Shown in pieces: positions 6,280 to 32,401 of a DNA stretch of 64,000 bases. How positions within the stretch are numbered: position 1 is the stretch's first letter; every line of letters starts with the position of its first letter. Under the pieces are notes generated by a model. The model was not told the DNA's origin and made no database searches. It saw nothing but the letters and a program-made list of their open reading frames with translations. The stretch covers positions 23,252,001 through 23,316,000 of the forward strand of contig OZ076409.1 in assembly GCA_964187785.1 (NCBI GenBank), read 5' to 3'. Origin of the DNA: Amphiscolops sp. MND2022. Its lineage: Eukaryota. Both the position numbers and the translations under genes were made by a program.

Positions 6280-6723
6280 ATATCTCAAATACAAACCACA
6301 AAGCTTCAAATTTACATTTATTAATAGTGTGACAATTGAAAATTCAGATACAAACTTTGTTCACACTTTTTCAATATGTAGTCACGCATTTTTGATGAAG
6401 AAATCAACAGCTTCCTGTTTTAAGTCATCAATAAACACTTAATACGAGCATAAGTATAGTCAAAATGTGTGAACAATTGTTCACATTAATGTTTTGTTCA
6501 AGCAAAAAACTTCTAATAGACGTTAACTTCCCGTTATGGAAGATGGTTTTACTTTTAATTAGGCTAGTCTGAAATTTTCAGGGAAATTTACTTTCAAAAA
6601 TTTTGGTGGTGGTGGGGGTGGGGAACAGAAAAGTGTGAACAAAGTTTGTAGTTCAATTCTAAACTGTCACACAGGCAATAAATTTAAAATTGAAAGTTTT
6701 TTGTACAAATAAGATGGAGATAT
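6280..6723. mobile_element. Foldback/MITE-like element with long imperfect inverted repeats
   Basis: Perfect 22-bp IR TACAAACTTTGTTCACACTTTT (6349-6370) / AAAAGTGTGAACAAAGTTTGTA (6629-6650), extended outward by GTGTGACA/TGTCACAC and further imperfect matches. Confidence 0.55.
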
Positions 6724-8600: not shown

Positions 8601-9226
8601 TTGGAAAGACTCAAACCGTTCGAGAGTATAAACAAAAATTTGAAAGACTCAAAAAAGGAAATTAATTTCCTAATCAAAAATGCGTGACTTTATAGAGAAA
8701 AATAGCGTGAACACAGTTTGTCTCTGGATCCTAAACTGCCACCCTGAGAATATTCAAATTCAAAGGTTTCTTCTTTGTTTTTACGTTTTCAAGTCAATTT
8801 AAAAAAAATAAATCCATGATGGTGGAAAAACAGAAAAAGAACCTTTTTTTTCTTTGCTTAAGAAAAAATGTTGCGAAATCTCTAGAAAAAATATAAGTCG
8901 CAACTTTGTCCTTCTGCTAATGATGGATGAGAATTGGCCCATCAATTTCCCTAACATACTTTGTTTCTACCCAAACCTAATGTAGCCACACTTTATCATG
9001 AGTGGTTAGACCTTTACCACAGTGAACTATTAATTGCTCCAGAAAATTATTGTCTTAACAGTGAAAAAATTTGGGCTCTTTTTTATTCCCAAACCCGCCC
9101 CCTTGAGAATTTATGCATCAAAGTAACCCTCAAAGAAAAAAATACTATTTGATGAAAACACATTTTCATATTTAGCAAACTTTGTCGAAAGTTGCTTTCA
9201 GGAAAATAGTACACCTTTTAAATAGG

Positions 9227-13300: not shown

Positions 13301-13591
13301 ATTCGGAGATCCATCCTTTTTTAAATCTCAATTGTTGTCATATGAAATCAGAATTTTTTTCTTCTCTATCAGATATCATGGATCTTCGTCATCAATCAAG
13401 TTTCCATGTGCAGCATCATGTTGGGGGGAGAAGACACACAGAGAAAGCTGAAATCAGAAAGCTACAATGGTACAAATGAAGAAACTGCAAAAATAACAAA
13501 AGTTGTTTACTAATATCGACAATCAAATTAAATTTTATTAAAGTTTCGAGATGGCAAATTTTTGAAAATAGTATTTTTGTTGAAATCGGTA

Positions 13592-14299
13592 TGTAACGTC
13601 CACCAGTCAATACCAAGTTTTCGTTGAAAAATTCGATCAAGAACCAAAAAAGGTGCGAATCAAAATGGCCGACCTGACAGGTCCTTAAAGCCCATAAAAT
13701 GAAAGAGAGAACGCGTGAACGAGAAGAATGACAGGAGAAGAAAAAGAAGTAGACGACTGACGACATGAAGATCCATGGGATAGAATTCAAAGAACGCTAC
13801 CCGGTGCTATGTCCTCCCTGGGAAAGCAGAGCCATTCCAGAACTACATGATTGGATCCCCGAGAACCTACAAACAGTAACTCTATTTCCACTCGGGGCCT
13901 ATCCCCCTTTATTTTGTTGACCTATGTTAATGTACTTTGCTGTTTTTCCCGTGCCTGACCTTCTAGGTCGGCATTTCATGCCCATAACTGTTGAAATGAC
14001 ATTTTTCGGATAAACACCTTTTTGGACCTCGGAAGTATGTGGGAGATAGCAGGAACACGCTAAAACCTTAGGATACGTTTTTACAGGCTTGTGGGGCGTG
14101 TCCGGACTTTGAGAGTGCCGGCGCGTCGCCTCGGAGCTCTAATTAGAGGAGTCTCCTTAGACGTTAGAAAAGTCCCCCATGGAGACCATTTTGGGATCAA
14201 AAACTAGTGTCTAGGTATGTAGTAAGACAACGGTCTCCTGTTTAAGCATCCTAGGCATTGTCCCTCTTCCTAGATGTGCGCCGCTAGCCGGACGTTACA
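13592..14299 (+). repeat. 5' LTR (708 bp)
   Basis: TGTAACGTCC...GGACGTTACA; no difference from 31665-32372 found on read-through. Confidence 0.97.
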
Positions 14300-14315
14300 T
14301 CTGGAATAGTTTTTA

Positions 14316-14332
14316 TGGCGACCACAGAGGGA
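14316..14332 (+). promoter_or_regulatory. Primer-binding site TGGCGACCACAGAGGGA, probably tRNA-Arg(UCG)-type
   Basis: Complement of a tRNA 3' end (..TCCCTCTGTGGTCG-CCA), resembling animal tRNA-Arg(UCG) ends as recalled; lies 16 nt downstream of the LTR. Confidence 0.7.
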
Positions 14333-16982
14333 TATTTTTCCTTGCCGCGTCCTGCGAGGAGCAACTCCTGCTTTCCGGCCCTGAAAGGTCCGGATCTAGG
14401 AGAAGCTTTTGGGAGAGTCCTAGATTGTTTTTATTGCCTTATTCTAGCCCTTTGGGCCTTGTATTAGTGTTTTTCCTGCGTTTCCTGCATGTTTCCGAGG
14501 TCCCTAGCCTGAAAAAGACAGTTTGAAACAGTGTACCCCCTTGTACCTTATCTGTACTCATTAAAAAAGCTATTCCGGCTTATCCGGAACGTGTTTTAAC
14601 GGGTTTTCCAGCTTCTTTTCAGCTAATTAGCAATGTACAGGGACAGCGAGGACGGTTTGTGAAGACCCGAACTAGCTGAGTGCAGGGCTGCAGGTGCTTC
14701 ACGTCATAGCCTCTTCCTCCCCACCTGGTGCCGATTCACCGAAAATAGCTGGGTTATTTCGTTCCCTTTACGTTTTCTAGCCCCAAATTAGTATTCCCAG
14801 GCCTGTTTTTGCATAAATTAACTGTGAATAATACCCACAGGGTATTTACATCAGTTATTCCAAGGACTTGAGCTCGAAAACGCCAAAAAAGACACTAAAA
14901 ACAGCTCAAATATCGAAATTTCCCGTTTTGAAAGCCAAAATTTTATAGAATTGTTCACGGCCCGTGGGAATACCTGAAAAACGTTCTGTCGGACCTACCA
15001 GGTTGAGAACAAAAAATTCTGTTGGGCTGTTTTTCAAAAAAGCATGAAAATTTCAGCAATTTTTGTTCAAAAATAGGCAAAATTGGCCATTTTGACCAAT
15101 TTTAACGAGGGCGAAGCCTTGGGCGTTTGCTCCCAAGCCTCTTGAAAGGCCCAAAAATTTTGTTGTTGTGCTTGGTAGTACGCAATACTACTACCAAGAC
15201 GGTTTTTGAACACCCCCAATATAAATTGAAGTTTTAACACCACTTTTCTTTCATTTAAATAGACCTGAGTAGAGGACCCCATAGACCTGAGAGCTATAAC
15301 ATCAAAAATAATAATTGAAAGAACCCCACTCCCCTAAATAAAGCAGTTACACCTTCCTACGGTACTGTTAAAACCATCTCTAACCTCTGGGAACCGAAGA
15401 ATAAGAAGTTCCTAGGGACAATACGTGTTTTTCATAGGTGTTCCCAGAGTGTCCAAGGTGTAACCTAAAACCAATTTTGAGAGACCCTAGCTGGAACCTG
15501 CCAGGTTTCGCTCGCTTATTTTCTATTAGTAGAGAGTACTAGATTACCAACGCTGAAAACCGCGAGTGATTCCAACCAGTGGTTGCCGAGAAATAGCCAA
15601 AAACGTATTATTTTTGTGACATTTTCGGAACACTAGAGTAGTGCTTCCAGCACAGGTCGAAATCTCTCCTAGCAGGAGTAGCCCAAAACGGATTGCACCA
15701 TCGTGTAGACCATAAAAAGTTACGTTAGTGGTGTAATTTTCATAGCGCTACCATTACTAGTGATTGAGAAATCTTAGCCGCAGTTTTGCTCAAAAATGAT
15801 CCGAAAATGTCGAAAAAATTGAATTTTAGTTGAGCATAGTGCTACACCTTGCAGGTATCCCAGCACTAAAATTCTTACGTTTTCGTATATACGGCGCTAG
15901 ATCCCGACGATTTGTGCATTTTGAGCAGCTTGCTACTGTCCAACTTGGAGAAATTGACAATTTTGTGAGTTTTAGCCCCTGAAAGTGACATACAGGGTAC
16001 ATCATAGTTTTGTCGACTCGGATTGCGAAATATTGACCTGGGCACCCTGCTAACTTATTTTTCTGTTACGTGGGCATAATTCACGCTCGCATACAAAATT
16101 TCAGATAGCTAGGACGCCTAGAAGGCGAGTTTGACCACTTTTTGCGAAATTCGCGACATAGCCAATTTCTCAGTGAACATTGTTAAGTGGCCGTGACACA
16201 CGCAGAATCTATTTTAACGCAATCGGAAGCTCATTCCCCACGATTCAGCTAGTGTACTAGGCGGTGTAAAATTTTCAGGTCGCTAGCACCACTAGAAGTG
16301 ATTTTCGCCTTCCCCGGAGGTGCTGCTTGATGAGAAAAACGAGATTTTGAGAAAAAATTAATAGAAAACCCGAGCATCCCCAATCATGATACACCCCATT
16401 CAGGGCTGGAGTCATCTGTTTAATGCATTGAGCAAGTCCCACACACCTTGCCGAACCTATAAGATCCATATAAAGTCAGCCCCAAAATCAACGATCTTCC
16501 ACTAAACCCTCTACGAGATCAAAAGACGGTAACTCCAAAAATCGAAATTCGTTTCTTCCCCGCCGTTAAGGTCGCCTAGGTGCAATCTACTCGCCACAAC
16601 CACCTCAACCCTACGCCTCGCATACCCTGAGGGTGCGAGGGTGCGCCTGAGAATATCAAAACAATCACAAACCAGGTTTGCGGAACGCGCAGAGAAACTA
16701 GGACAAGCACAGGGAAGATCACTCACATCATTATAACCCCTTCACCCACGACCCATAAAGCCATAAACCAGGTCATCACTCGATACTCAACCCACACGTT
16801 CCCAATCAAATCCCAGATCATTTCCAGTCCATTGTCCACCCATTGTCCCCGAATCAGCCCACCCATTGTTCTCAGCCTCCTCACAAAAAAAAAAAAAAAT
16901 TTTTTTTGTTACCTTTAATTTTGTCAACTATATAGTGGAAACTTCACACGCAGTGGAAGTTAAAATATTACATTTCGTGGCC

Positions 16983-19900
16983 ATGGAACGACGCGAGACT
17001 AACACCATCATTAGCGACTTCCATGCCACCAACCCTTTCGGAAGAAGAACGGAAACCACAACCGAACAAAACGAATGTAGATTAGATTCAGCCATAGCAG
17101 CCGTAATTTCAGAAGCTATGTCTGACTTCGTACCGAGCCAGGAACAAAACGCGGAGATAGCCGCTGCCAATACCCAGCCTAACTCCTCGCGAGCCTCCCC
17201 CGATAGCACCAATCTACCGGATAATACTGAGAACAACACGCAAAGAGACACATGGCCCCCGCTGGAAGTCACTGACTACAGCTTGGAAAACTGGCCAAAC
17301 TCCAACCAAGGGCCCATCAGTGAGCTCAGCATTGTTGATACCCCCAACGAACAAAATGACACTCCAATGACTCCACGGGCGGACCCAAAGATGGCAGAAG
17401 TCGAAAGGAACCCCCTGGGTTCCCAGGAGATGATCAATAGCGTAGGCGGAAATCCCTTCCGAAGCGGATATGCGCTATCGGAAGCACCGGCCAAAACGTC
17501 GAACGGGCCAGCGGAAAACTCGAAGACGAACATAACAGAGAATCCGTTAAGATATGTTTTTCGAACGCCACCCTCGGTAACATCAAAAATTAACTATGCG
17601 AATGCGAGTCGAACGTCTCACACACCAGACTCTCAAGCTAGCGCCGACACCAATCTCGACTCAACAATAACCAAAGCGAGAAAGGAAATGCAAACGGTTC
17701 GAGAAGACTTTCAGAGTAGTCTGGCACAGTTAGCTCAAGTCCAGACGAGGCTGGCGAGGGAAAACAACGAACATGAGATGCGCGCCGACATGATAATGAG
17801 GGACATGGACGAGCTACGAAAAGGTCTGTTGGAAATGCAAGCGGAAGGGCGACAAAATCAAGGTCGACTGGAAGCGTCAATGGCATCTCTCAATGATCTG
17901 ATTAAACAGAGAGAAACTACAGCGGACGCTCGCATGGCCGAGATGTCTGCAATAATGAGAGAAAGAGACCGCCAAGCAGATGAGCGCATGAAAGCAATGA
18001 CAAACACGATGCAGCGTCGCGACATAGACTCCAATGTCCGCATGGCGGACTTGATGATGGCAATGCAAGATTTAACATTGGGAGTGAAAGCAATCGTGTC
18101 GCAAACCCCCGCGCAGCAAGCACAAACGGCGCCGCGGATTCCCCAAAAATATCAACAGACCGAAATGCCATCTACAAGCGAAGCTCCCCAACCTCATTAT
18201 AGAACGGTGGCACAACACACAGCAGAGCCTCCTAGGCCTCCAAAACTAGTGCCACCCGCAACGTACAGGCGTGACCTGTCTAAAGCTAGCAAGGTGGCTA
18301 AGGTAACCCACACGGAATCACGAGACGCAGGTACGGACCCAATGACTGACCCGCCGTCGTTTGACCAGTACGCTCGCGGAACATCAACCTCCGGCGATTT
18401 TCATTCCGCCGCCGACGAAACGAACACCCGCAGGACCAGCTACTATACGGCCGATTCAAGCGCAGCATTCCGCCCACCTGCGCGGACGCAAACGTTCAGA
18501 GACTTCGTTCCGCGGCCAGTGGCCACCAGTACGCAGCGTAAAATGACAAACAAGCGGAATTTAGAACAAGGCAAAGGCGAACACAGCGACATTGAAGAAA
18601 TGCCCTCAATGGCAGAAGAGACTCCAGACACGCCGAGAACTACCCAACGACAAGCACTAGCGGAAGCAATATCTACGGCCATGTCTAAAGGCTTAGAGCC
18701 GTTGCTCGCCGCCAAGGAATCTAAAAACAAGCCCACGAAATATAGAGGAACCCGAGACGGAAACGCAGATGGATGGATGATGTTAATGAAACGCCATTTG
18801 GAAAAAGCACACCCTAAGGCGACCCCCCTCGATAAGGCGTGGACAATAATTGAGTATCTAGAGCATGAAGCCAGGGATTACATCACGAATAAATCCGAAG
18901 CAGAGAGGGACACTGACGAAAAAGTATTCGCGTTGCTGGCGCGTCGCTTTGGGACAGGTTCCAGCAAAATCCATATCCAACAGCAATTTAGAACCCGCAA
19001 CCAGAATAGCGAGGAGGACTACATGCAATACCTTGACGCCCTCGAAGGCCTGCGTAGTCAAGGTTACCCCAATGAAGAGGTGACAGTTCGTCGATACGAA
19101 ATCATGCAAAGATTCATTGAGGGAGTACGCAACTTCGAACTAAAAAGGAACCTCGCGCTAATGTATGCACCGGAACAATACGTGGAAACCCCACCAACAG
19201 TGGAAGCCCTCCGCTTCACAGTGCAACAATACTTACGCATGCGAGGCTCAACCCGTTCGGACAACTACCCAATGATGCCTCCTCCACAACAACAAGCCAA
19301 TATCCAACAACCAAATCAGTCTCCAGTAGCACCCGCGCCTGCCCAAAAAATGCAACAACAACAGCCTCCTCAACCAGCAGCATACCAACAACAACCCATG
19401 CCACCGGCAGCCTATCGTCCGCAACCCCAAAGAGCGTGCTTCAACTGCGGAGACCCATCGCATTTTGTGGTGGACTGCCCCCTGAAAGACCGTGCACGGA
19501 AGCCAGTACAACAGCAAGTGAACTCCTGTCACACGAACCCGACGGGTAGTTGGATGTGCCCCTCCCAGCCACGTGGCTTAAACTATGATGTATTCCCAGC
19601 ATCCCTACCAACCCAAGGCACAGTTGCCTTCTGCATTAATTGCGGCCGTACTGAGCACTCGGCGTCAGAATGCATGGCCTCGGAGCAGATGAGTCACGAA
19701 GAACAAATCCGTGCAGCTTGGTATGCTCCTTCACCAAGTCAATTCGATAACCTGAGCCAAGACGACCAAGTCCGGGTAATATCAGTAGCGGAAGATGGAG
19801 GTCCCTCCCGACCTGTAGTAGTCACTTGTGGCGAGAAACAAGTACTCACCACACTAGAGGCACCCGCCCCAGATTGTACAGAGACACTTATCTCGATACA

Positions 19901-22900
19901 CTTACTACTCTCGGCCGAACAAAAGACGCGGCCCACGCTGACGCTATCGCAACTAAAGGAGGAATTATGCAGAAACGTGAAGTATACCATCGCAGCGCGA
20001 CCGCTCCCACATTTCGCGAGAGAAGACGAAACGAAACTGGCCCCAATACAGAAAGTTAAAACCGTTTCTCCGGTGCCGGTAGCCATTAACGTAGACGGTG
20101 TAGACATGAAATTTGACGCTATTGTAGTCTTGGAAGGTCACTTCCCTCAGGGATTGTACTTGGGCCGCCAGGAGTTACGATGTTATAACATCGGAGTGCA
20201 AGATGCCCAGGGGGAGGCTCGTATTGACGAACGGGCATCCCTGGTGGTTGCCTTTGGCAACACTATCCAGGAACCAATACCCTTGTACGGGATGATAGAC
20301 ACCGGTTCCGGTGTCTCCATTCTCTCTCTCAAAGCCTATCAAAAAATTGCATCACCCCACGCCCTGAGCCTCCTACCATATGACATCCAACTGTATGCCG
20401 CCAATGGTAAAACCATCAACACCATTGGAATCGCCGAAAATGTTAGCTTCCAGTTGGGCGGATATACCCTCCGAACCAATTTCATAGTCATTGCCGATCA
20501 CCTAGGCGCGGAAGATTTCCTACTTGGCAGAAACTTCTTGCGCACTTACAACGTTCTCGTGGACTTGACGGCCATGAGGGTCACTATACGAGACCCCAAA
20601 GCGCCACGCCACTTCAAACCCGTCCATGAGGTAAGTGATCATGAGCCATCCCTAGTGATATCCACCGAAAAAGTAGTTCTAGGCCCTTATGAGCGTAAGC
20701 TAGTACGAGCCCAAATTATTTCTCAAAAGCACAACGAGTACCTTTTCCGAAACGTAATGATTCGCCCCCAGGGGGTATCTAAACGATCCCCCTTTGTTTC
20801 AGAAGATACATTGACGTCTGTTGGAGATGAAGGCATTGTCTTCATAGCCCTACGAAACACTACCCCCTCTGAAAACGTAACTATTCAAACCAAAACTGTC
20901 CTCGGTAAGGCAGAACTTACAAATTTTGTGTTGCAACCTGTGGCTGCCGACACGGCAACCGAAATTGATAAACCTTTGTTTGAACAAGTTAATAGAGTTT
21001 ATACCGAAGAGTGGTTAAACGAAACGAGTTCAGAATATAGTTCTTTTGCTCAAAACTTCTTGTCCTCTACTGAGATATCTGAAGAAGGATTGTCGGAAAG
21101 CGAGAAACGTGCTCAGACTGACCCACAATTACTAAAACCTATACCAGGTCCAGACCTTTCTTCCGTCCTTTCTTCATGGGGGGAGGGAGCGAGAGATCAA
21201 CTAGCAAGCGTTCTGAGCGAGTACGATGACCTTTTTATGAAACATAAAGCTGACATAGGGAGGTGCAAAATAGCGAAACATCGTATAGAACTAGAGCCGG
21301 AAGCTATCCCGCATAGAGAAGGCGCTCGGCGCATGTCCCCAGATAAGGCAGCAAAGGCTAATCAAGAGGTACGGAATCTACTGGCCCTTGGCCTAATTCA
21401 ACCCTCCTATTCACCGTGGGCAAGCGGAATAGTCATGGTTAAAAAGAAAACAGGCGAACTTCGCTTCTGCTGTGACTTCCGACCGCTCAACGACGTAACG
21501 GTCAAGGACGCGTTCCCATTGCCCAGGATTGATGAAAGTCTATCCCGGATAGGCAATGCGAAAATTTTCACAAGTATTGACCTAGCGTGGGCCTTCTGGC
21601 AGATACCGCTAAAGAAGCGCGATAGAAGGAAAACAGCATTTGCCTGCGAACTGGGATTGTTCGAATGGCGGCGCATGCCCTTTGGGCTATGCAATGCATC
21701 GGCCACATTTCAGCGCTCCATTACACGAGCCCTGCAAAGGATCCAGCAGCGACACGGGAGTGTCGTTATGGCTTACATTGACGACATAGTTATCGCCACG
21801 GAAACCATAGAAGACCACATCGTACGAATCAAGGAAGTATTCGAGTGTCTCCGAGAGGCTGGATTCAAGATGCGCGCCGAGAAGTGTGACTTCATGCGTA
21901 CGGAGACGAAGTACCTGGGGCGAGTAGTATCCTCGGAAGGCATCAGACCAGACCCCGAAGCAATAGTTAAAATCCAAGAATGGATGCCCCCGAGAAACAA
22001 AGAGGAGCTTCAGAGCTTCCTAGGGTTTGCAAACTATTACAGAGACTTTGTACCGTTTCATGCAGCCAAAGTGCAACCCCTGCAAGAGTTGCTCAAGAAA
22101 AGTCAGCATTTCCACTGGGAAATGAAACACCAAGAAGCCTTCGATGCAGTAAAGGAAGCACTAGCAAACGCGACCGCCTTGGCAGCCCCAAATGAAGACG
22201 GACGATTCGTGCTCGATACCGATGCTAGTGCGGTAGCGATAGCGGGAATCCTGCACCAGGAACAGGAACACAATGGGAAGACTATTTTACGGCCAATAGT
22301 CTTCGGGAGCAAATCTCTAACGAAGACACAGCTGAACTATGGAGCACCCAAGTTGGAAATGTACGCAGTATTTTACTTCATAGAGAAGTTCCACTCATAT
22401 CTCGCAGGCCGAGAGTTCACGCTCCGTGTGGACAATCAGGCCCTGTCATGGCTTAAAACGTACTCCATGGACCAAGCCATGATAGGTCGCTGGATAGCCC
22501 GTCTGGATCAATACAACTTCAAGACGATCCACCGACCTCGCACACAGCATCGAAACGTGGACGGCCTCAGCAAACGAACCAACGACTATGTGCACCGGGA
22601 GAAAATCCTCGAGAAGTTACCGGAAGTGAGTGAAGGATTCAACTTCATGACCAAAGAAGACTATGAAGCACTCCCCACCGTGCCATACTTTGACAAACAC
22701 GGACGCCCAATACCAAACCACCCAGAGCTCCCGCCGGAAGCTCGAGCCCAACTCCCACTGCTGTATATCTTGGGAAAAAGACCCAAAACGAGCTTGCAAG
22801 AGCCCCCGGTGAATGGTGCCCCATGGTATCCTCAAATACAGTGGGAGGCGACACCCACCACAGATGAGGATCACCGACCGACTCACATCCTCAGCATCAC

Positions 22901-25900
22901 GACCAAAGTGCCACCGGCACGCCTAGACACTGAAGAACCTGATCCTGTGCTTGAAGAGATGCCACCCGAATGCCAAGCACAAGCCAACGCCCTTAGAACA
23001 GTTGGAACAGAGCTGCATGAACACTTTCTGACCAGACGTGGCCTCAAGGACCTGCACCTAGCACAAAATAGGGACATGCACCTCCTAGCGCTGAAGAAAC
23101 TCATGAACGGCGAACCACTGGAAGAAACAATGTTCCCCGAAGACGTACAAGACTTCGCGCGACGCTACTTCCATCAAAAGAAAGACCTGCTCTTCCTGAA
23201 CCCAGACGATATTCTCTGCGTCAACTACGTTCCGCAACAACGTGCGCTGCACGCGCGACCGTGTATGATAGTCATGCCACAACTATACCAACACGAGATT
23301 CTGTATAGGGCACACGACGAATCGGGACATCAGGGCGTAGGGAAGGTGCTAGCGAGAGTACAAGAACGGCATACCTGGCCGGGCATTAAGCGTGACATAG
23401 TCAATCACATCAAGCACTGCTTGACCTGCCAGCAAACAAAACACCCCGCCGGGAACCCCTGCTACCCCTTGCAGAACATCAACAGCAGCAATTTCAACGA
23501 CCTAGTACAATTCGACCACCTCAAACTATGCAAAACCGAATCGGGAAACACCGGTCTCTTAGTCATGATAGACCACTTCACGAAATTCGCCGAGGCTATT
23601 CCGTGTGCCCACGACGAATATGATGCCCAAACCACAGCTAAAATCATCCTTAATAAATGGTTTGCCAGACACGGCACTCCAGCACGGATGCAATCCGACA
23701 ATGCCACGAATTTCACAGCTGAAATCGCACAGGAGCTAATGAAAGCCTCGCAAGTCACTAAAGTGACATCCACTCCAGCGCATCCTCGAGGAAATGGACT
23801 CGTGGAAAGGCAGAACCGAACGTTACTCGCACTGCTAAGAGTCTACACTTCGCGACGAATGCAGGATTGGGATGAGCATATTGATGGAATCCTCGGTGCG
23901 TACAATTCAACTAGACACGCAACCACTGGATTCTCTCCCTATATGCTCCAACACGGAGCCGAGAAATCCATTCCCCTGTCATTCATCTACCCAGAATTTG
24001 CTGCCCGAGGATTCGATTCCAAAGAAGAATTCGTGGAACATCTTCTAGCCAGACAGCAAGAAATCCATGAACTTGTCAGAAGAAATACACACCAAGCACA
24101 GCTACGGCAAAAGCTGAAGTTTGACCGCCACCTGAAAGCCAAAGCGCACGCTGTAGGCGATGCGGTGTGGGTATTCTGCCATATCATACCCAAGGGTGGC
24201 ACCCGTAAGCTGATTCGCGCTTGGCGCGGACCCCACAAGGTGACCGACGTGTTGCAGGACGGACGATTATATGTACTAGACACTGGCCAAAAGGTCCACT
24301 ACGAAAGATTGAAAAAGCATGTGCCTGCCCCTTGGGACTGGGCCGCACACCAGCCCTTTGGGCCGAATCAAAACGTAGCCATTATTGCTGATCCGTACGT
24401 AGAAGAAAGCAATGAAGAGATAGCGTCCGACATCTCCCAAGACTCTTTCCTACCGGAACAACTTCCGGAAGCATCCTTCGAAATGGAACCGACAGGATCG
24501 ATTCCACCTCGTACCATTCAGACTCGTACCCAAACAGCACTCGAACAAGGAATACCCCGAAGAAGATTCAGCCACTTCGGGTACCCCTCTAACTCAGATT
24601 CCGAAAGAGAGGAAAATGAGCCGCCGATTCAGAGCCCACCACCGCCAGTAGTGTTCCCCGACTTGGACGACCTAGAACCACTGTACTCCGACCAGGAGGA
24701 AATTCAGCCGGCCGTACCTACGAGTCTGATACCATCACCCTCAGGGACCTCAGCCCCCCTACTATCCAATCCGTCCCTAACAGACACCCTGAGTAACTTT
24801 CCCTTGTTTGGCCCCCAATTAGAGAACCCGATCGACCCGATAGAAAATGAACCAAAGTCAGAAACTGAGAATGAAGAAGAGACAACCCATCGCAGTCCAA
24901 GCCATTGCTCAACACAACCCGATACCACGAATCGTAGAGGACGGCCTCGAGGCCGACCACTAGGTCGAGGAAAACCCCGCGCTATACCATCCACTAGAAC
25001 CACAACATCGTCGCGAACCCAAACCGCACGATCCAGAAGAGGCCCTAGGGCAAGAATGAGCACTCGTGCACCCCCTCGAAAACTAGACCGAGCGATGACT
25101 CTACCAGAAATACCCGAAAGCCAACAACCACCAGATGTCCAGGACTCAGAACCAAGACCACTATCGCGAACATCACGATATCAACTGCGAGCTAACAGAA
25201 CACCACGTTACAAGTGTGGAACCTGTGGTTCCCGCAACTGTAGTTGCGTCAAGCATCTGACTCGCCATTCACCGGACAACCGATTGGCCCGGGGAGCGGT
25301 AGTCCCTGCCAGGGATCTCTTTATGGCCAGGACACATTGTCACCCACAACATGAGATCTTAACCGTGCAAGCCCAGCGAGAAAAGGTGGTGGAGACACCC
25401 CCGCTAGTGCACCATTTGATCATCACGGTAGAAAAAACTTTCACTAGTGTGGAACGAGAAGCGATACCACCGCTGGAAGAAACACTCAAAGCAATGCACG
25501 CGACATCTCCCTCCGACTGCCCGACTTACCGATTCAAAGAATGGACACCTCCCCATCGAGGCGGTCTAGAATTCACCCTACATGCCATCATACCGCCTTT
25601 GCCACCCTCGATGACATTCGGCGAGCTAGCAAAAGAGGATAATAGCCCGGAGATGATCCGCTGTATCACTGCACACCAACTGTGGGAGAAATATCACATT
25701 GCCTCCCCGCCGGGAGACATATATCAGCCCACCAATGGATGGTGGCTACTTGTCACCTCTCTAGACGCAACGACATTGGTATCTCCCACAACTTTACTGA
25801 TGTGCTTAGAAAGCTTGCGTACAGTAACCGAACCTGAGAACACGCTTTGTTTCCACATGGCCGATATTTATCGTGGCAAGTTCCTAAGCCAACATTGGCT

Positions 25901-26654
25901 ACAATTAATAGCGGTCGTCTTCTGCCGACAGGCGAAGATACACTTCCTGGATCGACAATTTTATACACCAGAAAAACCCGTCACGGTTAGCGAAGCACTC
26001 TCGATAGTACACGATTGGTCATCTACAAACTTGGGAGATAGACCTCTACGCCGAACCGTCTGGGAAGACCGACAAGCAATCTTGCAGCATTTGACACCCC
26101 GACCCACCGATGATCAGAGCAGAACCACCGGCAAATGGCTCATAACCCAGCCTAAAACCAGACCGAATTACTTACCTTGGATAAGTTATGACAACACAGA
26201 TATCCTGCAGGCACCTGGCACCGTGATACTATGCTGCCCTGCGGATTTGCTCTCTTACTCTGCCACAATCCGTTACGTCATTCGCGAATACGGTCAAGAA
26301 AACATATTTCGTCTAAGACCATCAGTTGGCACCGCAATTCGCTTAACCCGCTCGCCAACTGCACCCTGGAATAACGAAATCTTCCTTCTATGTACCAGAG
26401 CATCGACCAAGCATCCGCTCTTACATGAAGTACTCCATGCGTGTTTGACGAATTTGATAACCCAGCTCCATCGAAACCGCATTACCAGAATCCACTTGCC
26501 CATCTATGATCCTGAGCGATCGATGAACCTCCTTCCAGCCTGGTACGCCACACTACGCGACCACTTTGCAGACCACAACATAACAATAATTTTGCACGAT
26601 CGCGTCTATGTCACGATAGCGTCGATTACCTCTGCCAACTTTGGCGGTAGTTAA
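16983..26654 (+). CDS. gag-pol: Gag-Pol polyprotein, 3223 aa, single frame, with long N- and C-terminal extensions
   Basis: ATG in GCCATGG at 16983; coiled coil ~17670-18090; capsid-like ~18730-19240; CCHC knuckles 19437-19478 and 19632-19673; protease DTG 20298-20306; RT YIDD 21774-21785; RNase H 'DTDAS...ELEM-like KLEMYA...VDNQAL...NVDGLSK' ~22200-22580; integrase HHCC ~23310-23430, core D(QFDH)-D(SDNA)-E(VERQN), 'WRGPHKV' motif ~24222. Confidence 0.97.
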   Translation: MERRETNTIISDFHATNPFGRRTETTTEQNECRLDSAIAAVISEAMSDFVPSQEQNAEIAAANTQPNSSRASPDSTNLPDNTENNTQRDTWPPLEVTDYSLENWPNSNQGPISELSIVDTPNEQNDTPMTPRADPKMAEVERNPLGSQEMINSVGGNPFRSGYALSEAPAKTSNGPAENSKTNITENPLRYVFRTPPSVTSKINYANASRTSHTPDSQASADTNLDSTITKARKEMQTVREDFQSSLAQLAQVQTRLARENNEHEMRADMIMRDMDELRKGLLEMQAEGRQNQGRLEASMASLNDLIKQRETTADARMAEMSAIMRERDRQADERMKAMTNTMQRRDIDSNVRMADLMMAMQDLTLGVKAIVSQTPAQQAQTAPRIPQKYQQTEMPSTSEAPQPHYRTVAQHTAEPPRPPKLVPPATYRRDLSKASKVAKVTHTESRDAGTDPMTDPPSFDQYARGTSTSGDFHSAADETNTRRTSYYTADSSAAFRPPARTQTFRDFVPRPVATSTQRKMTNKRNLEQGKGEHSDIEEMPSMAEETPDTPRTTQRQALAEAISTAMSKGLEPLLAAKESKNKPTKYRGTRDGNADGWMMLMKRHLEKAHPKATPLDKAWTIIEYLEHEARDYITNKSEAERDTDEKVFALLARRFGTGSSKIHIQQQFRTRNQNSEEDYMQYLDALEGLRSQGYPNEEVTVRRYEIMQRFIEGVRNFELKRNLALMYAPEQYVETPPTVEALRFTVQQYLRMRGSTRSDNYPMMPPPQQQANIQQPNQSPVAPAPAQKMQQQQPPQPAAYQQQPMPPAAYRPQPQRACFNCGDPSHFVVDCPLKDRARKPVQQQVNSCHTNPTGSWMCPSQPRGLNYDVFPASLPTQGTVAFCINCGRTEHSASECMASEQMSHEEQIRAAWYAPSPSQFDNLSQDDQVRVISVAEDGGPSRPVVVTCGEKQVLTTLEAPAPDCTETLISIHLLLSAEQKTRPTLTLSQLKEELCRNVKYTIAARPLPHFAREDETKLAPIQKVKTVSPVPVAINVDGVDMKFDAIVVLEGHFPQGLYLGRQELRCYNIGVQDAQGEARIDERASLVVAFGNTIQEPIPLYGMIDTGSGVSILSLKAYQKIASPHALSLLPYDIQLYAANGKTINTIGIAENVSFQLGGYTLRTNFIVIADHLGAEDFLLGRNFLRTYNVLVDLTAMRVTIRDPKAPRHFKPVHEVSDHEPSLVISTEKVVLGPYERKLVRAQIISQKHNEYLFRNVMIRPQGVSKRSPFVSEDTLTSVGDEGIVFIALRNTTPSENVTIQTKTVLGKAELTNFVLQPVAADTATEIDKPLFEQVNRVYTEEWLNETSSEYSSFAQNFLSSTEISEEGLSESEKRAQTDPQLLKPIPGPDLSSVLSSWGEGARDQLASVLSEYDDLFMKHKADIGRCKIAKHRIELEPEAIPHREGARRMSPDKAAKANQEVRNLLALGLIQPSYSPWASGIVMVKKKTGELRFCCDFRPLNDVTVKDAFPLPRIDESLSRIGNAKIFTSIDLAWAFWQIPLKKRDRRKTAFACELGLFEWRRMPFGLCNASATFQRSITRALQRIQQRHGSVVMAYIDDIVIATETIEDHIVRIKEVFECLREAGFKMRAEKCDFMRTETKYLGRVVSSEGIRPDPEAIVKIQEWMPPRNKEELQSFLGFANYYRDFVPFHAAKVQPLQELLKKSQHFHWEMKHQEAFDAVKEALANATALAAPNEDGRFVLDTDASAVAIAGILHQEQEHNGKTILRPIVFGSKSLTKTQLNYGAPKLEMYAVFYFIEKFHSYLAGREFTLRVDNQALSWLKTYSMDQAMIGRWIARLDQYNFKTIHRPRTQHRNVDGLSKRTNDYVHREKILEKLPEVSEGFNFMTKEDYEALPTVPYFDKHGRPIPNHPELPPEARAQLPLLYILGKRPKTSLQEPPVNGAPWYPQIQWEATPTTDEDHRPTHILSITTKVPPARLDTEEPDPVLEEMPPECQAQANALRTVGTELHEHFLTRRGLKDLHLAQNRDMHLLALKKLMNGEPLEETMFPEDVQDFARRYFHQKKDLLFLNPDDILCVNYVPQQRALHARPCMIVMPQLYQHEILYRAHDESGHQGVGKVLARVQERHTWPGIKRDIVNHIKHCLTCQQTKHPAGNPCYPLQNINSSNFNDLVQFDHLKLCKTESGNTGLLVMIDHFTKFAEAIPCAHDEYDAQTTAKIILNKWFARHGTPARMQSDNATNFTAEIAQELMKASQVTKVTSTPAHPRGNGLVERQNRTLLALLRVYTSRRMQDWDEHIDGILGAYNSTRHATTGFSPYMLQHGAEKSIPLSFIYPEFAARGFDSKEEFVEHLLARQQEIHELVRRNTHQAQLRQKLKFDRHLKAKAHAVGDAVWVFCHIIPKGGTRKLIRAWRGPHKVTDVLQDGRLYVLDTGQKVHYERLKKHVPAPWDWAAHQPFGPNQNVAIIADPYVEESNEEIASDISQDSFLPEQLPEASFEMEPTGSIPPRTIQTRTQTALEQGIPRRRFSHFGYPSNSDSEREENEPPIQSPPPPVVFPDLDDLEPLYSDQEEIQPAVPTSLIPSPSGTSAPLLSNPSLTDTLSNFPLFGPQLENPIDPIENEPKSETENEEETTHRSPSHCSTQPDTTNRRGRPRGRPLGRGKPRAIPSTRTTTSSRTQTARSRRGPRARMSTRAPPRKLDRAMTLPEIPESQQPPDVQDSEPRPLSRTSRYQLRANRTPRYKCGTCGSRNCSCVKHLTRHSPDNRLARGAVVPARDLFMARTHCHPQHEILTVQAQREKVVETPPLVHHLIITVEKTFTSVEREAIPPLEETLKAMHATSPSDCPTYRFKEWTPPHRGGLEFTLHAIIPPLPPSMTFGELAKEDNSPEMIRCITAHQLWEKYHIASPPGDIYQPTNGWWLLVTSLDATTLVSPTTLLMCLESLRTVTEPENTLCFHMADIYRGKFLSQHWLQLIAVVFCRQAKIHFLDRQFYTPEKPVTVSEALSIVHDWSSTNLGDRPLRRTVWEDRQAILQHLTPRPTDDQSRTTGKWLITQPKTRPNYLPWISYDNTDILQAPGTVILCCPADLLSYSATIRYVIREYGQENIFRLRPSVGTAIRLTRSPTAPWNNEIFLLCTRASTKHPLLHEVLHACLTNLITQLHRNRITRIHLPIYDPERSMNLLPAWYATLRDHFADHNITIILHDRVYVTIASITSANFGGS

Positions 26655-26984
26655 GAGCACGTCTCGCCCTCTACTTAGCATATCAGGCCACTGGCCTTTT
26701 GCACTGCCTTTAGTTAATTCGAAGCACCTTAAGATTTTAACAAGGCCGCGCCGACAAGCGCAAATTTTAGTACTAACCACTGAAACTTTTTAACCTTATG
26801 TTTGTGTGTTCGTCCTAAAAAGCTTAACTGCCCACCCGTCTATGTGATGTCTTATCTCCAACTGTAACCTGTTTTTCAGTTTTGTCCTGTTGCCTCGCCT
26901 CTGCGCGGCCCCCATACTTATCACGCCAAATCAGTCTTGCCATCACAATCTTCGGTGCTAAACATTCCTTTATCATCGTTTCCA

Positions 26985-29900
26985 ATGGACCCATCTGCGC
27001 GACACCGCCTGCCTGCACCCCAGAACGCTGCGCGTGCCCAACCATCCACAAGGAACGACCCACCCCCAATGATGAGCGAAATAGATGGTCGAGTCGACCA
27101 GCTAGCTCTTGTCCAAGACACCCTACTAAACGGAGCGACACCCACAATGATCACTGGCTTCGCCATGATCATCGCCCAAACCCAAGCTCAAGCAGAGTAC
27201 CCTGATGTTAGCTTCACTATCACCAGCCGAGTCGGCCCGATAGAACGCTCCGCCACTTTTCGCGACGGTACCTGGCAAGGGTATGACTTGACCCACAGCC
27301 TCATAGACCCTCGCTCTCACGTAGTCTATGGAGAACCTACCAGGCCCCCCATGGACCAAGAACGATCACTCCGCATTTCACAGTCAGCACTACAGACGTC
27401 ACAGACACAAACTACGACCCCGTTGCCCTCGCCGCACCCGGTGCAGTTCAGCTGCACGCTGCCAATCATGCCACCCCCAGTACTAACACCACCCATGCCC
27501 CTGGCATCGGAAGGCATTCGCCTACTGACCACCCCATCCTCTACCTTCATGCCTCCATCTACCTTTCAGGGGGGAGGGGTGCAAGTAGACAATACAGCAA
27601 GTGCTACCCTGAGCGAAGAACAGCCCAGGAGAACGGTGACGTTCAAAGATTCATATGAAGAATTAACTCAGACGTCTTCCAGAACCGAATCACAAGTCTC
27701 GGAACCTCCACAAGCCTCAGAACCAGCTAGCCTAGTAGGCTTCCAAATGGACCCACAATTCCGAGAACGTCAGCGAGAACAACAAAAAGCCGAAAGTAAG
27801 GCAGCCAACACTGTGGTAGACCTCCGGGAGAAAATAAAAGCTGGAAAGCGAGCCAGAGAGGCGACCATGCAAAGTAAACAATCGAGCTCGACCAGTGTCC
27901 CGCAACCCTTGTCTGCCTCACCCACGCAACCAGAAACAAGGAGACCGAGAATAACACACGAACTCCTAACACATTCGGAAAAACGGCAGCTGGATATCAC
28001 TGCACGCGACGCACTGCGTCTGCAGCGGGAAATACCAACCACAACGCCACCAGAAGACCCTCTACGACAGAAATTCGAGACCGCAACGGGAACTGGGGAC
28101 TTCGCCACAAGGCAGAAAATAGAAAAAGCCACAGTGGGAGTACTCTACAATCGTCCCGTCAAGAAACCAGTGTTCACTCGAGACGGATGCCCCCCATGGT
28201 TCAATCGCATGCGAGCAGAATTGGAGAGAGTGAACTCGACATACATGCGTATTCCTGACAATTTCATCCGACAGCGCCCTGGCCGCTTCGACGAAGATCG
28301 CTTGCGAACAAAAAACTATGCGAGGGACCCCATTACAATCCTGCCCATGGAAAAGGACCTTTTGCAGAAAACCAGAATAGCCTTCTTCGTCGACTCGACG
28401 ATGAAGTCTTCATTCAACTCCCACAATACCCTCATGGATGTCAGAATAATGAACATGCCCTGTACAACACTGAACGAAATGGCAGAGGTGACCGACAAAG
28501 TATTCACCCAAGCGGGAACAGAGACCATCCCATTACCTCCGTTGCTGGTATATTCAAATGTGATAGATCACCTCGCTCTGCGAGGGACCTTGGAATTTTT
28601 CCGACCAGACCACGAAAGATTTACTGAGGGGTTCGTCACCGACGAAGTGACCAACTACGTGGAGACAATGGCGAATATTGCCCAAACTATGCGCAGAAGG
28701 AAAGCTGTCACTGGAACGGTATTTATGTCACCTCCAGGCTACGTGCACCTTCCTCGGACCCTTCAGCAATTCTTATACCTAGTAATGGAGGCAGCGTACG
28801 CAAGAGATCTGGCTTTTTACATTGTGGCCCCCAATTTACGTATCAGCAATAATAGCTGGCGCCCTTGTGAAGCCTCATACCCAGCCTTCGTTGCTGAAGT
28901 CTCAAAGGCCCTTCAATCATACGTCGGTTACCGCGGAAACTCCCAAATGGTAGTGGATGAAGCAACAGCATTCGACTACGGGATGGAAATGGCTCGCCGA
29001 TCATTGAATGAGCGTGGAGACCGAATCGTAAACGACCCAAATGAAAGTGAGCGCAACAACCTGGTGGATAACCTCTGGTTTGAACGCCGGGACGAATCAA
29101 CAATAGACGAGAAAACACATGAACCCAAGTTTCACAAGGAACTCACGAATCTAATGAAAGAAACCGAGACGATTCAGGGTGATAGAAAGAATTCCTCCAT
29201 CTTCCCCATAGCACAAATATCATTGGATGCTGAACCTGGGCAAAGATCACCCACATTGGCCATGCTGTTGATACTAGCTCAAGACATTGTACAAAGGAAT
29301 GTTCAAGAGCCGACACACACGTACCAAACATGGCACGATCAACTACGAGAACCTTTGGGCCAAGTCGCGGACCGACTGGGCATAACATTTCCCGTATTTC
29401 TCCACAACATCTCTCCCTTCTGGCTTCCTTCCTTAGTACAAGCCGAGTACGGCCTGGATGAGCAGCGAATGCGACTTTACATGGAGGCCATGGAAAGAGC
29501 GACCGTTAGTGAACTACTAGCGTACCTGATGGCCGTGGGGTTGACCATGATGTACAGAGGACCATCGGCCCTCATACAAAAGTTCGTGCTCAACAAGGGA
29601 GGCTCAGCCCTGTTCAGCTTCCTAGTCTTCTCGCAGAATCAAAGAGGTTGGATATCTGCGCTCATTGAAACCCTGGACCCAGCGGGTTCCCTGAAATTAA
29701 AGACGCAGCTGGACTTAAACATTCAAGCACTTCTAGTGTGGATTTATTCCACCTGGGTCAATGTCTCGGGCGTTATGCATCCTCTGGATGAGTGCCCAGC
29801 TATTAACCGAGACCCCAATCAACTTCCTGGGTTCCTGTTCCCTACACAAGTTGCAACATTGATGCTCGTGGAAACAGAGGACCTAATACCCCTCATTGCT

Positions 29901-31079
29901 CCGATAGTCTGGCCTATCTTCGGCGCAGTTATGGCCCTGCGCTATCCAACGCAAGCCCTGCGAGTGGCAGCGGTGAGCCCATCCCTCTCGATTCTACATT
30001 TCGTGACCTCCGATGGGCCCCTTCAGGGTCCCACCTATCAATCAGTGATACACAGCTTTGCCAACTTGCGACCTCCCATGGCGTATACCGTAATCAAAGA
30101 CCGCCAACAAGTGGAACACAACTATCTCACCTTGATCAAGGCGAGAGCACGTAGCTCGCTCCCTTTGCCAATGGAAATCCATCCGGTAGTTTGGCTGCAC
30201 ACCCCCATTGATCCAAATAATGGAGCAGTGGCGACATTTGAAGGGTGGGACGTGCCAGTTGTCCTGCGTATCTTGAGAACAATTATCCAAAGATTGGGTG
30301 GTCGTCGAAAAGGAGAAGAACCTACTAGGTTATTGTATCCCTATGCGTGTGACACTTCCAGAATATATTGTGCGAGAACAGAACCCCGTGAGCATACCGC
30401 CAGAATCTTGAATACCATTACATGTTGGGCCCAGCCGGAGCTCGTGGACCTCGCTATACACCAAACCTTCCAACAGCTGCCAACAACTATTCCGACAGTA
30501 GCAAAGGAACCAAGCAAGAAAGATTTGCCCGTGAACACTGACGTTCCCAGCAACCCGCGTATGGCACTAGAGATATTCGTGCGTCTGCATGGTCTCCAAC
30601 GAGAACGTACTCGAGCCGTGGGCGAAGAATACGCTAGGGGAATACGAACGTTCAGGCAGCTGTTCATCCAATATGGCCATCAAGAATTAGCGGACGGTTT
30701 GCCGAACTTGGAATCAGTCGAAGCTATCCCAGGAATTAGCGATTTGAGCGAAGCTGCCTCTGGCAGCTCTCGCACCGTCTTCCCCACACCCCACGTGAGT
30801 CAAGACTCCAATGAAATATTGGTGGAAAGGGCACAAGATGATGTGCCAGGTGTCATGCCACCATCAGGGGAACCTATGACTGATAATAACTTCACGTTCT
30901 CTGATGCCACTACTCCTGTAAGAGACGAAGTGGAAACCAATATCTCGAACTTGGAGGCAGCGGACATAGAGTCAGAGCTCAATAATCTGCTGACCATAGA
31001 CGAAGAGTATCAGAATACGGTGGATGCCATGGGCAACACCTCAGTCCAAGAAGCCCCACAGGACCAACTGCTGGAATAA
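26985..31079 (+). CDS. ORF2, 1364 aa, unknown function, in the env position; central SGNH/GDSL-like domain
   Basis: 4.1-kb stop-free frame between pol and PPT, ATG in CCAATGG context, base composition like pol; no N-terminal signal peptide; SGNH-like blocks at 28374-28920. Confidence 0.9.
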   Translation: MDPSARHRLPAPQNAARAQPSTRNDPPPMMSEIDGRVDQLALVQDTLLNGATPTMITGFAMIIAQTQAQAEYPDVSFTITSRVGPIERSATFRDGTWQGYDLTHSLIDPRSHVVYGEPTRPPMDQERSLRISQSALQTSQTQTTTPLPSPHPVQFSCTLPIMPPPVLTPPMPLASEGIRLLTTPSSTFMPPSTFQGGGVQVDNTASATLSEEQPRRTVTFKDSYEELTQTSSRTESQVSEPPQASEPASLVGFQMDPQFRERQREQQKAESKAANTVVDLREKIKAGKRAREATMQSKQSSSTSVPQPLSASPTQPETRRPRITHELLTHSEKRQLDITARDALRLQREIPTTTPPEDPLRQKFETATGTGDFATRQKIEKATVGVLYNRPVKKPVFTRDGCPPWFNRMRAELERVNSTYMRIPDNFIRQRPGRFDEDRLRTKNYARDPITILPMEKDLLQKTRIAFFVDSTMKSSFNSHNTLMDVRIMNMPCTTLNEMAEVTDKVFTQAGTETIPLPPLLVYSNVIDHLALRGTLEFFRPDHERFTEGFVTDEVTNYVETMANIAQTMRRRKAVTGTVFMSPPGYVHLPRTLQQFLYLVMEAAYARDLAFYIVAPNLRISNNSWRPCEASYPAFVAEVSKALQSYVGYRGNSQMVVDEATAFDYGMEMARRSLNERGDRIVNDPNESERNNLVDNLWFERRDESTIDEKTHEPKFHKELTNLMKETETIQGDRKNSSIFPIAQISLDAEPGQRSPTLAMLLILAQDIVQRNVQEPTHTYQTWHDQLREPLGQVADRLGITFPVFLHNISPFWLPSLVQAEYGLDEQRMRLYMEAMERATVSELLAYLMAVGLTMMYRGPSALIQKFVLNKGGSALFSFLVFSQNQRGWISALIETLDPAGSLKLKTQLDLNIQALLVWIYSTWVNVSGVMHPLDECPAINRDPNQLPGFLFPTQVATLMLVETEDLIPLIAPIVWPIFGAVMALRYPTQALRVAAVSPSLSILHFVTSDGPLQGPTYQSVIHSFANLRPPMAYTVIKDRQQVEHNYLTLIKARARSSLPLPMEIHPVVWLHTPIDPNNGAVATFEGWDVPVVLRILRTIIQRLGGRRKGEEPTRLLYPYACDTSRIYCARTEPREHTARILNTITCWAQPELVDLAIHQTFQQLPTTIPTVAKEPSKKDLPVNTDVPSNPRMALEIFVRLHGLQRERTRAVGEEYARGIRTFRQLFIQYGHQELADGLPNLESVEAIPGISDLSEAASGSSRTVFPTPHVSQDSNEILVERAQDDVPGVMPPSGEPMTDNNFTFSDATTPVRDEVETNISNLEAADIESELNNLLTIDEEYQNTVDAMGNTSVQEAPQDQLLE

Positions 31080-31656
31080 AGGAGTCCTCTGGACCCTCAA
31101 GACTGTTAGAACACAATTGAGCATAAAGGACCCTATCATCAATGTACTAATGCTAATTCTTGATTTTAGTTGTGCTACACCATCTTGCTGGTGCTGAAAA
31201 CTTTCAGTGCAATAAACCTTAATTCCTGAGTTTTGTTTGATGTATATTATACTTTGCTACCATTGTAACAATGCAATATAGTTACATCCTCTGGGTGGGT
31301 CCCGGTTCGGTGCCCTCCCGTTTTGATTTGAATTGGAAACTTCTACCAAGCCCAAAAGTTGTTGTTACTCACCTGGCCGCGCAGGGGCCCTATTTTAGAA
31401 AAAGAAATTTTAACTTGAACTGAGGAGTTAGTGAAAAAACCTTTTTAAAGAAAAAATCCGACTGTATAGTTTTTAACTTAAAAATCTGTGCTTTTTGAAT
31501 TCGATGGCTTTAAGGTGCTAGACATGCAGTAGTAAGGCGAAAAGAAAAATAATGTGGAATCAACGTAGCTTTGACATAAGACCTTTTCTGTGGACCTCAG
31601 AGTACCCTTTGGGTGCGAGCATCCTCTCGTTTGCCGGGGACGACAAACTACGGCCC

Positions 31657-31664
31657 GGGGAGGA
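31657..31664 (+). promoter_or_regulatory. Polypurine tract GGGGAGGA
   Basis: Purine run immediately 5' of the 3' LTR TG. Confidence 0.8.
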
Positions 31665-32372
31665 TGTAACGTCCACCAGTCAATACCAAGTTTTCGTTGA
31701 AAAATTCGATCAAGAACCAAAAAAGGTGCGAATCAAAATGGCCGACCTGACAGGTCCTTAAAGCCCATAAAATGAAAGAGAGAACGCGTGAACGAGAAGA
31801 ATGACAGGAGAAGAAAAAGAAGTAGACGACTGACGACATGAAGATCCATGGGATAGAATTCAAAGAACGCTACCCGGTGCTATGTCCTCCCTGGGAAAGC
31901 AGAGCCATTCCAGAACTACATGATTGGATCCCCGAGAACCTACAAACAGTAACTCTATTTCCACTCGGGGCCTATCCCCCTTTATTTTGTTGACCTATGT
32001 TAATGTACTTTGCTGTTTTTCCCGTGCCTGACCTTCTAGGTCGGCATTTCATGCCCATAACTGTTGAAATGACATTTTTCGGATAAACACCTTTTTGGAC
32101 CTCGGAAGTATGTGGGAGATAGCAGGAACACGCTAAAACCTTAGGATACGTTTTTACAGGCTTGTGGGGCGTGTCCGGACTTTGAGAGTGCCGGCGCGTC
32201 GCCTCGGAGCTCTAATTAGAGGAGTCTCCTTAGACGTTAGAAAAGTCCCCCATGGAGACCATTTTGGGATCAAAAACTAGTGTCTAGGTATGTAGTAAGA
32301 CAACGGTCTCCTGTTTAAGCATCCTAGGCATTGTCCCTCTTCCTAGATGTGCGCCGCTAGCCGGACGTTACA
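31665..32372 (+). repeat. 3' LTR (708 bp)
   Basis: Same length and sequence as 13592-14299. Confidence 0.97.
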
Positions 32373-32401
32373 GTATTTTAGTGTTTTTATCAAAGAATCT
32401 A

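Follow-up and report, generated by a model that had tools for sequence, protein, structure and literature searches.

A predicted TARG1-type pseudo-macrodomain and a second macro-like module at the C-terminal end of a Ty3/gypsy polyprotein in Amphiscolops

The genome of Amphiscolops sp. MND2022 contains a Ty3/gypsy retrotransposon whose Gag-Pol polyprotein ends in two tandem macro-like modules, M1 and M2. The element occupies positions 13592-32372 of a 64,000-nucleotide stretch of contig OZ076409.1 (assembly GCA_964187785.1, positions 23,252,001 to 23,316,000), which is called the window here and provides the numbering used below. It is 18,781 bp long and intact, with two identical long terminal repeats (LTRs). 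M2 is strongly predicted to have the macro fold of TARG1, and a macro fold is moderately predicted for M1. The catalytic and binding residues of TARG1 are replaced, yet the domains are conserved in at least two element families and kept by purifying selection, which argues for a docking role rather than an enzymatic one. We assign a probability of about 0.5 to the reading that M1-M2 serves the integration machinery as a ligand-blind docking module and not as an ADP-ribose eraser.

The modules form a C-terminal cassette in the first open reading frame (ORF1). Family A denotes the window element and its close copies, and family B a sister family in the same genome. The polyprotein features are as follows.

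16983..26654, + strand: ORF1, a single Gag-Pol frame of 3,223 amino acids, counted from the first Met as the presumed start
21438..21920, + strand: reverse transcriptase (RT; Pfam RVT_1, E 6e-36)
23277..24320, + strand: integrase, with H2C2 zinc finger, DDE core and C-terminal SH3-like part (Pfam match)
24400..25250, + strand: low-complexity linker, ending in a Cys cluster common to families A and B
25560..25964, + strand: M1, a macro-like module more eroded than M2, preceded by a folded N-terminal extension from about 25413
26175..26603, + strand: M2, a predicted TARG1-fold pseudo-macrodomain (predicted structure, profile-profile match)

Fold of the C-terminal cassette

The open frame containing ORF1 spans 16767-26654 (3,295 codons). 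ORF1 encodes, in order, CCHC knuckles, protease, RT, RNase H, integrase and the cassette; Pfam matched the protease, RT, RNase H and integrase. M2 is the last domain and ends 18 residues before the stop. This agrees with a sequence-only reading of the same DNA, made by a model without database searches, which had placed a TARG1/Poa1p-like macrodomain at the extreme C-terminus of Pol. The peptides it quoted form one frame at 26181-26576, as it claimed (ISYDNTD begins at 26181, IRYVIREYG at 26268, VGTAIRL at 26325, EIFLLCTR at 26376, LHACLTN at 26433 and LRDHFADH at 26553). It missed M1. Its description of the domain as fused to integrase holds within the polyprotein only, with about 280 low-complexity residues separating integrase from the cassette. 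Just 5' of the cassette, a C-x2-C-x4-C-x-C cluster (25215-25247) is kept in families A and B and possibly binds zinc.

The macro fold was missed by sequence searches and was seen only through structure and profile-profile comparison. ORF1 had no Pfam macro match at E<=10, a PHROGs search gave no macro match, and M2 matched nothing in PDB sequence searches with either phmmer or a profile. The relatives gathered comprised 56 long proteins and the 150 best-ranked of 383 representatives. The alignment used for folding held 97 sequences (the window sequence, one family B copy and 95 of these best 150 representatives), and a single member had a Pfam Macro match, at E 0.3.

An AlphaFold2 model of the last 406 residues of ORF1 had a mean pLDDT of 87.1 and a pTM of 0.58. 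When this alignment-based model was submitted to Foldseek, rows 1-8 were all TARG1 (E 1e-8, target TM 0.82-0.85), followed by DarG. VIA-align superposed model residues 258-400 (26175-26603) on TARG1 with a Z score of 18.6 and an rmsd of 2.1 Å over 137 of 141 residues. Z scores for DarG (15.8) and Poa1p (13.3) were lower; thus the TARG1 part of the earlier assignment stands, whereas Poa1p is more distant than both TARG1 and DarG. Profile-profile comparison of M2 with intact TARG1-type element domains gave probabilities of 96-97% and scores of 58-70, against scores of at most 19.3 for column-shuffled controls. A single-sequence model was poor (pLDDT 49.6); with it, Foldseek returned no match at E<=0.001 and placed TARG1/DarG at ranks 3-8. 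The sequence-only reading held that the lack of any macro-fold match by profile or structure search would speak against it, and both kinds of search gave such a match.

M1 corresponds to model residues 53-187 or so (25560-25964), in which strands and helices follow the same order as in M2. Against intact TARG1-type element profiles, it reached HH probabilities of 88% and 78% when cut long, and 41% and 15% when cut short. Between the M1 and M2 profiles, the HH probability was 88% and the score 39, with shuffles scoring at most 22.8. An Atlas search returned phage macro-like clusters common to both modules, with M1 just under the thresholds. M1 and M2 also jointly carry three characters that are missing from the intact set: G-C-G-L is replaced by D-x-x-R, the S99 position is Cys, and the Y/N/H80 position is Leu, preceding the Leu that is conserved in the catalytic strand. 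In a tree with host macrodomains as outgroup, the two modules formed one group (support 97/94; 91 in a quick tree). Duplication of an already degenerate domain is the likely origin of the pair, and no more than likely because both branches are long.

Pocket residues and ADP-ribose

TARG1 numbering was transferred through profile alignments and through an intact element domain that aligns with PDB 4J5R (E 6e-22); the defining residues were taken from PMC6397177. The counts for M2 come from 44 rows, namely four seeds plus fragments from the 150 best-ranked of 383 relatives; rows with less than 60% coverage were dropped, and column counts vary with gaps.

M2 resembles human TARG1 (also OARD1 or C6orf130; PDB 4J5R, 4J5Q and 2L8R) in its predicted whole-domain fold, at 18% identity. 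It differs in being part of a tandem inside a retrotransposon polyprotein, and in its pocket residues. The position of the catalytic K84 holds Arg in 40 of 44 rows and Lys in one; in M1 it is Ala or Ser (49/52). TARG1 G41-A42-G43 reads x-S-A, with Ala at the G43 position in 32 of 36 rows and Gly in none of the 36. The loop G121-C-G-L-D125 is D-P-E-R-S/P in M2: Asp replaces G121 (31/34, no Gly), Pro C122 (25/33), Glu G123 (26/32; Gly in two rows) and Arg L124 (30/32), while the D125 position holds Pro or Ser in 25 of 31 rows, with no Asp among the five residues listed for that column. The same loop contains a conserved His (28/35). S35 is replaced by Pro (30/34), and H32 by Cys, Ala or Gly. M1 has D-x-Y-R-G-K at the G121-D125 loop and lacks part of loop 1. 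Residues kept in M2 include the adenine-binding D20 (27/31), C33 (26/33), T83 (34/44) and P118 (23/33), as well as the equivalent of D37.

The same positions are nearly invariant in intact-type domains (n=124, from 120 database proteins): K84 in 120 of 124, G43 in 117 of 124, G121 in 117 of 123, G123 in 120 of 124 and D125 in 121 of 124. The TARG1 pattern TKx(30,35)Px[IL]GxGxD is absent from ORF1 and present at 11 of 20 other element loci and in 84 of the 120 database proteins. M2 thus retains D20 among the TARG1 hydrolase features and has lost K84, the GxG motif with D125, and H32, S35 and G43 of loop 1. The three losses named in the sequence-only reading (the GAG loop, the GCGLD loop and the change of the catalytic Lys to Arg) are correct for M2, and its view of the domain as non-catalytic is well supported by the motif loss.

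Mutants of TARG1 bear on these replacements. G43E and G123E abolish ADP-ribose binding and catalysis and leave folding and RNA binding intact (PMC5928194), and K84A is inactive, abolishing rescue from DNA ADP-ribosylation (PMC8501950). Since the catalytic and glycine-loop residues are replaced, with Glu at the G123 position as in the binding-dead mutant, the aligned residues make TARG1-type catalysis by M2 very unlikely and canonical ADP-ribose binding unlikely; the pair is probably not a reader of ADP-ribose.

The idea of a reader or decoy, also raised in the sequence-only reading, is weakened by the loss of both pyrophosphate glycine loops and by the Glu that stands for G123 in 26 of 32 relatives. 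A rewired pocket would have to use arginine side chains in place of glycine amides, and M2 could then tether the integration complex to PARP-marked chromatin or shield ADP-ribosylated element proteins. The retained equivalents of D20, C33, D37, T83 and P118 favor such a pocket, as do the two conserved arginines near it, at the K84 and L124 positions. ADP-ribose also seems to matter to these elements, because many Gypsy families in the genome keep intact TARG1 domains. The new pyrophosphate loop, however, carries two acidic residues and a proline, G123E by itself abolishes binding in TARG1 (PMC5928194), and M1 is missing part of loop 1; we consider a reader unlikely.

Because TARG1 G123E and G43E retain RNA binding (PMC5928194), the pair might instead use a pocket-independent surface to package or protect the 18-kb genomic RNA. 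The unusual length of the element would suit such a role, and tandem macrodomains of the SARS unique domain (SUD) bind G-quadruplex RNA (PMC2674928). RNA binding by TARG1 has, however, been proposed to involve basic patches, and M1 and M2 are mostly acidic: computed isoelectric points are 5.3-6.4 for M1 and 5.3-8.4 for M2 (net charge +2 to -8), compared with 8.8-9.7 for five of six intact element domains. An RNA-binding module therefore appears distinctly doubtful.

The His, Asp, Glu and Arg of loop 3 (28/35, 31/34, 26/32 and 30/32) are gathered in one loop beside the old active site and might act on some other nucleotide adduct, which would make M2 an enzyme with new chemistry. However, the Foldseek and VIA-align rows hold no enzyme with such a motif, and M1 has the D-x-x-R but lacks the Glu, as would suit a structural role. 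We regard new chemistry as improbable.

Conservation, related elements and the docking role

Family A is young and abundant, with at least 150 matches at 92-100% identity. Family B, for which 101 matches were scored, has the same layout and 74% identity to family A over RT-RNase H. For selection analysis, variants were called against one reference copy, and those found in at least two of the 29 copies per family were considered shared. In family A, shared-variant pN/pS was 0.066 for M1 and 0.062 for M2; the corresponding family B values were 0.13 and 0.017 (p<=1e-4 for all four). With all variants counted, the values were 0.09-0.17 for both modules and families. Part of this signal is general to the frame, as the upstream low-complexity region is constrained too (0.17-0.19). 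Between families A and B, identity is 43-49% in M1/M2, 26-29% in the inter-module linker and 82-83% in RT.

These data speak to whether the domains are a decaying relic with no function, as the lost active-site residues and a sequence beyond Pfam detection might suggest. A relic is very improbable: pN/pS of 0.02-0.17 in both modules and both families refutes it, unless the values are an artefact of the copies' shared ancestry. Moreover, the modules have diverged less than the linkers, new motifs have become fixed, and 70 of 150 family A matches lie in open frames of at least 3,200 amino acids. The cassette is functional, with new fixed motifs. The sequence-only reading had asked about conservation in related elements, and the M2 motifs are indeed kept among relatives, with purifying selection in two families.

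Intact relatives of the domain are present in the same genome. When the genome was searched with Pfam Macro, 24 matches were obtained: four were host-type and 20 lay in other element families, with none in family A or B. An intact TARG1-type domain follows integrase in families C and D, lies between RNase H and integrase in family E and between protease and RT in family F, and in family G follows the protease at the end of the frame, with no RT in the stretch examined. Families C-G resemble A and B in having the fold in Pol (C and D at the same site), and differ in that their domains are single and keep K84, GxG and D125, with 11 of 20 loci matching the strict TARG1 pattern; they belong to distant RT lineages, with RT-RNase H identities to family A of 24% for C and D and 35% for E. 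The site after integrase, shared by A/B and C/D, is either very old or was reached twice, and the tree does not choose between the two.

Database proteins with such domains (120 of 480 matches examined) show the same spread of positions in Pol; the macro region of family D, used as a database query, gave no match. Two unnamed Gypsy-type Pol proteins, P0208 and P0325, also have tandem macrodomains with degenerate extra copies. Unlike those of A and B, these lie between RNase H and integrase, have an intact first copy and fall outside the M1/M2 group in the full tree. In P0208, the intact copy is followed by two degenerate ones, the second copy having Arg at K84 and no GCG, and this protein is an independent case of the same decay. 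Among the 120 proteins, P0311 and P0319 combine a TARG1-type macrodomain with DNA-ligase Pfam domains.

The proposed docking module could have arisen as follows. An ancestor would have captured an intact TARG1-like hydrolase, of the kind still found in other Gypsy families of the genome. The captured domain would then have lost its active site, gained the D-x-x-R loop and been duplicated. Today the pair may contact DNA or a protein, which could be one of the element's own or a host factor of chromatin or repair. It would do so while joined to integrase or travelling with it, similar to what the pocket-less chromodomain does at the end of Ty3 integrase.

Several points weigh against this docking role. 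The partner of the pair is hypothetical, and the cassette may be cleaved off integrase within the linker of about 280 residues. The pocket was judged from aligned residues, and D20, C33, T83 and the basic residue at position 84, which M2 keeps, would also fit a nucleotide pocket that has been remodelled. Two long branches are joined in the M1+M2 clade, and the HH support for M1 varies with where the module is cut (78-88% when long, 15-41% when short). Finally, a tRNA gene was found within the 3 kb fetched at none of 60 LTR loci, and 62 family A copies were distributed uniformly along five contigs (KS p 0.52), with no regional targeting seen. A targeting function, as suggested in the sequence-only reading, is possible, but the regional or tRNA-linked form of it was not seen.

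A functional parallel is Ty3, whose integrase ends in a vestigial chromodomain that binds Brf1 and target DNA (PMC8632968). There, too, a captured reader fold without a ligand pocket stands on the C-terminal side of integrase (PMC8632968). However, the Ty3 chromodomain has another fold and is directly attached, and its element targets tRNA genes and duplicates 5 bp of target (PMC8632968), neither of which is seen here. ORF1 had no Pfam chromo match at E<=10, a search that a vestigial copy could escape. SARS SUD (Mac2/Mac3 of nsp3) offers another parallel, with two tandem macro folds in a viral polyprotein; these do not bind ADP-ribose and contact G-quadruplexes through lysines (PMC2674928). 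For M1-M2, blindness to ADP-ribose is suggested by the residues. SUD belongs to a different macro class and virus, and the likeness implies no homology. Capture of a macrodomain by an LTR retroelement is also known from fish epsilon-like endogenous retroviruses, in which macrodomains occur in additional ORFs (Basta et al. 2009, via PMC4977317). A literature search found no report of a macrodomain in Gypsy Pol, a weak negative, as most subscription journals, Repbase reports and supplements lay outside the search. M1-M2 may work in the manner of a captured reader fold that no longer uses its ligand; the pair would share the TARG1 fold without being a TARG1 hydrolase.

Insertion sites, element layout and meaning

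LTR elements generally duplicate 4-6 bp of target DNA upon insertion. Families A and B depart from this range, which is usual for Ty3/gypsy elements. A 3-bp target-site duplication was found in 13 of 14 LTR pairs and both solo LTRs of family A (one pair was unmatched), and in all 12 scorable pairs (13 examined) and one solo LTR of family B. Together, 25 of 26 LTR pairs have it, with a chance match of 0.019 per pair. To our knowledge, 3 bp lies outside the range for LTR elements and retroviruses. An offset LTR boundary was considered as its cause and rejected: TG/CA also marks the internal ends of the LTRs, the fourth base is variable, and the bias in the flanks is centred symmetrically on three bases. 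This bias is a weak YG-NNN-CR pattern (28 sites; p 0.004 and 0.001 among 12 symmetric positions). For comparison, the duplication is 5 bp in family C (one copy), 5 bp in family D (two of three pairs, the third being unscorable) and 4 bp in family F (one copy), so that the intact-domain side of the comparison covers families C, D and F with four copies. A narrow literature search, whose finds concerned DNA transposons, annotation and satellites (including PMC10741241), gave no report of a 3-bp duplication in an LTR element.

The primer-binding site is also displaced. Its distance to the LTR is exactly 16 nt in all 14 copies of family A and in 13 of 14 of family B, with the same 18-mer and differing spacer sequences; in families C and D, the primer site adjoins the LTR. 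The cDNA end usually extends two bases past the terminal CA, and in A and B it would overhang by far more. The A/B lineage might thus have a distinct intasome, in which the duplicated dead TARG1 fold is a structural part of the integration complex, the stagger is 3 bp and a cDNA overhang of about 16 nt is trimmed. We hold this proposal to be quite doubtful. Family B being the sister of family A, what is seen is a single co-occurrence of the cassette, the 3-bp stagger and the 16-nt spacer, which gives no independent evidence of a link. If the proposal is true, A/B elements fall outside the usual LTR rules and are missed by finders that require 4-6-bp duplications.

The remaining features of the element are listed below. 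The order protease-RT-RNase H-integrase between TG...CA LTRs, together with a primer-binding site and a polypurine tract, places it in Ty3/gypsy.

13589..13591, + strand: left copy of the target-site duplication (GTA), read from the LTR flank
13592..14299, + strand: 5' LTR, 708 bp, with TG...CA ends and 10-bp inverted termini, identical to the 3' LTR
14316..14333, + strand: primer-binding site, 16 nt from the LTR, pairing with the 3' end of tRNA-Arg(TCG), a tRNA present in the genome
14334-16982: non-coding leader of about 2.6 kb, from the primer site to the first Met of ORF1
26985..31079, + strand: ORF2, about 1,360 amino acids, also present in family B (28% identity)
31652..31664, + strand: polypurine tract, recognized from sequence
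31665..32372, + strand: 3' LTR, 708 bp
32373..32375, + strand: right copy of the target-site duplication (GTA), read from the LTR flank

Genes for tRNA-Arg form a tandem array with a spacing of about 174 bp (genome C9:57.54-57.57 Mb), and the genome holds 359 pattern matches. Family searches gave no match for ORF2, whose N-terminus is under purifying selection (shared-variant pN/pS 0.11) and whose family B counterpart is at 4372-8805 (- strand) of locus L091. A stretch near 28360-28900 looks, by eye, like what we take to be an eroded SGNH-hydrolase fold. In ORF1, the region 19900-20200, which precedes the DTGSG protease, resembles by eye a second, degenerate protease-like unit. Beyond the element, an approximately 1.8-kb element at 36548-38388 has inverted arrays of a 17-bp unit at its boundaries and resembles a foldback or MITE-type DNA transposon. 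Positions 39000-64000 are a strongly strand-skewed satellite array of roughly 52-bp units, in which higher-order periods fall near 105, 147 and 1,100 bp.

Overall, a captured ADP-ribose eraser appears to have become a conserved pseudo-enzyme pair in a retrotransposon polyprotein, in a genome in which other families carry intact versions. These families provide a natural series for asking how ADP-ribosylation affects retroelements and how enzyme folds are reused. The 3-bp duplication is well established in two abundant families and offers a testable example of an unusually tight stagger, irrespective of any causal role of the cassette.

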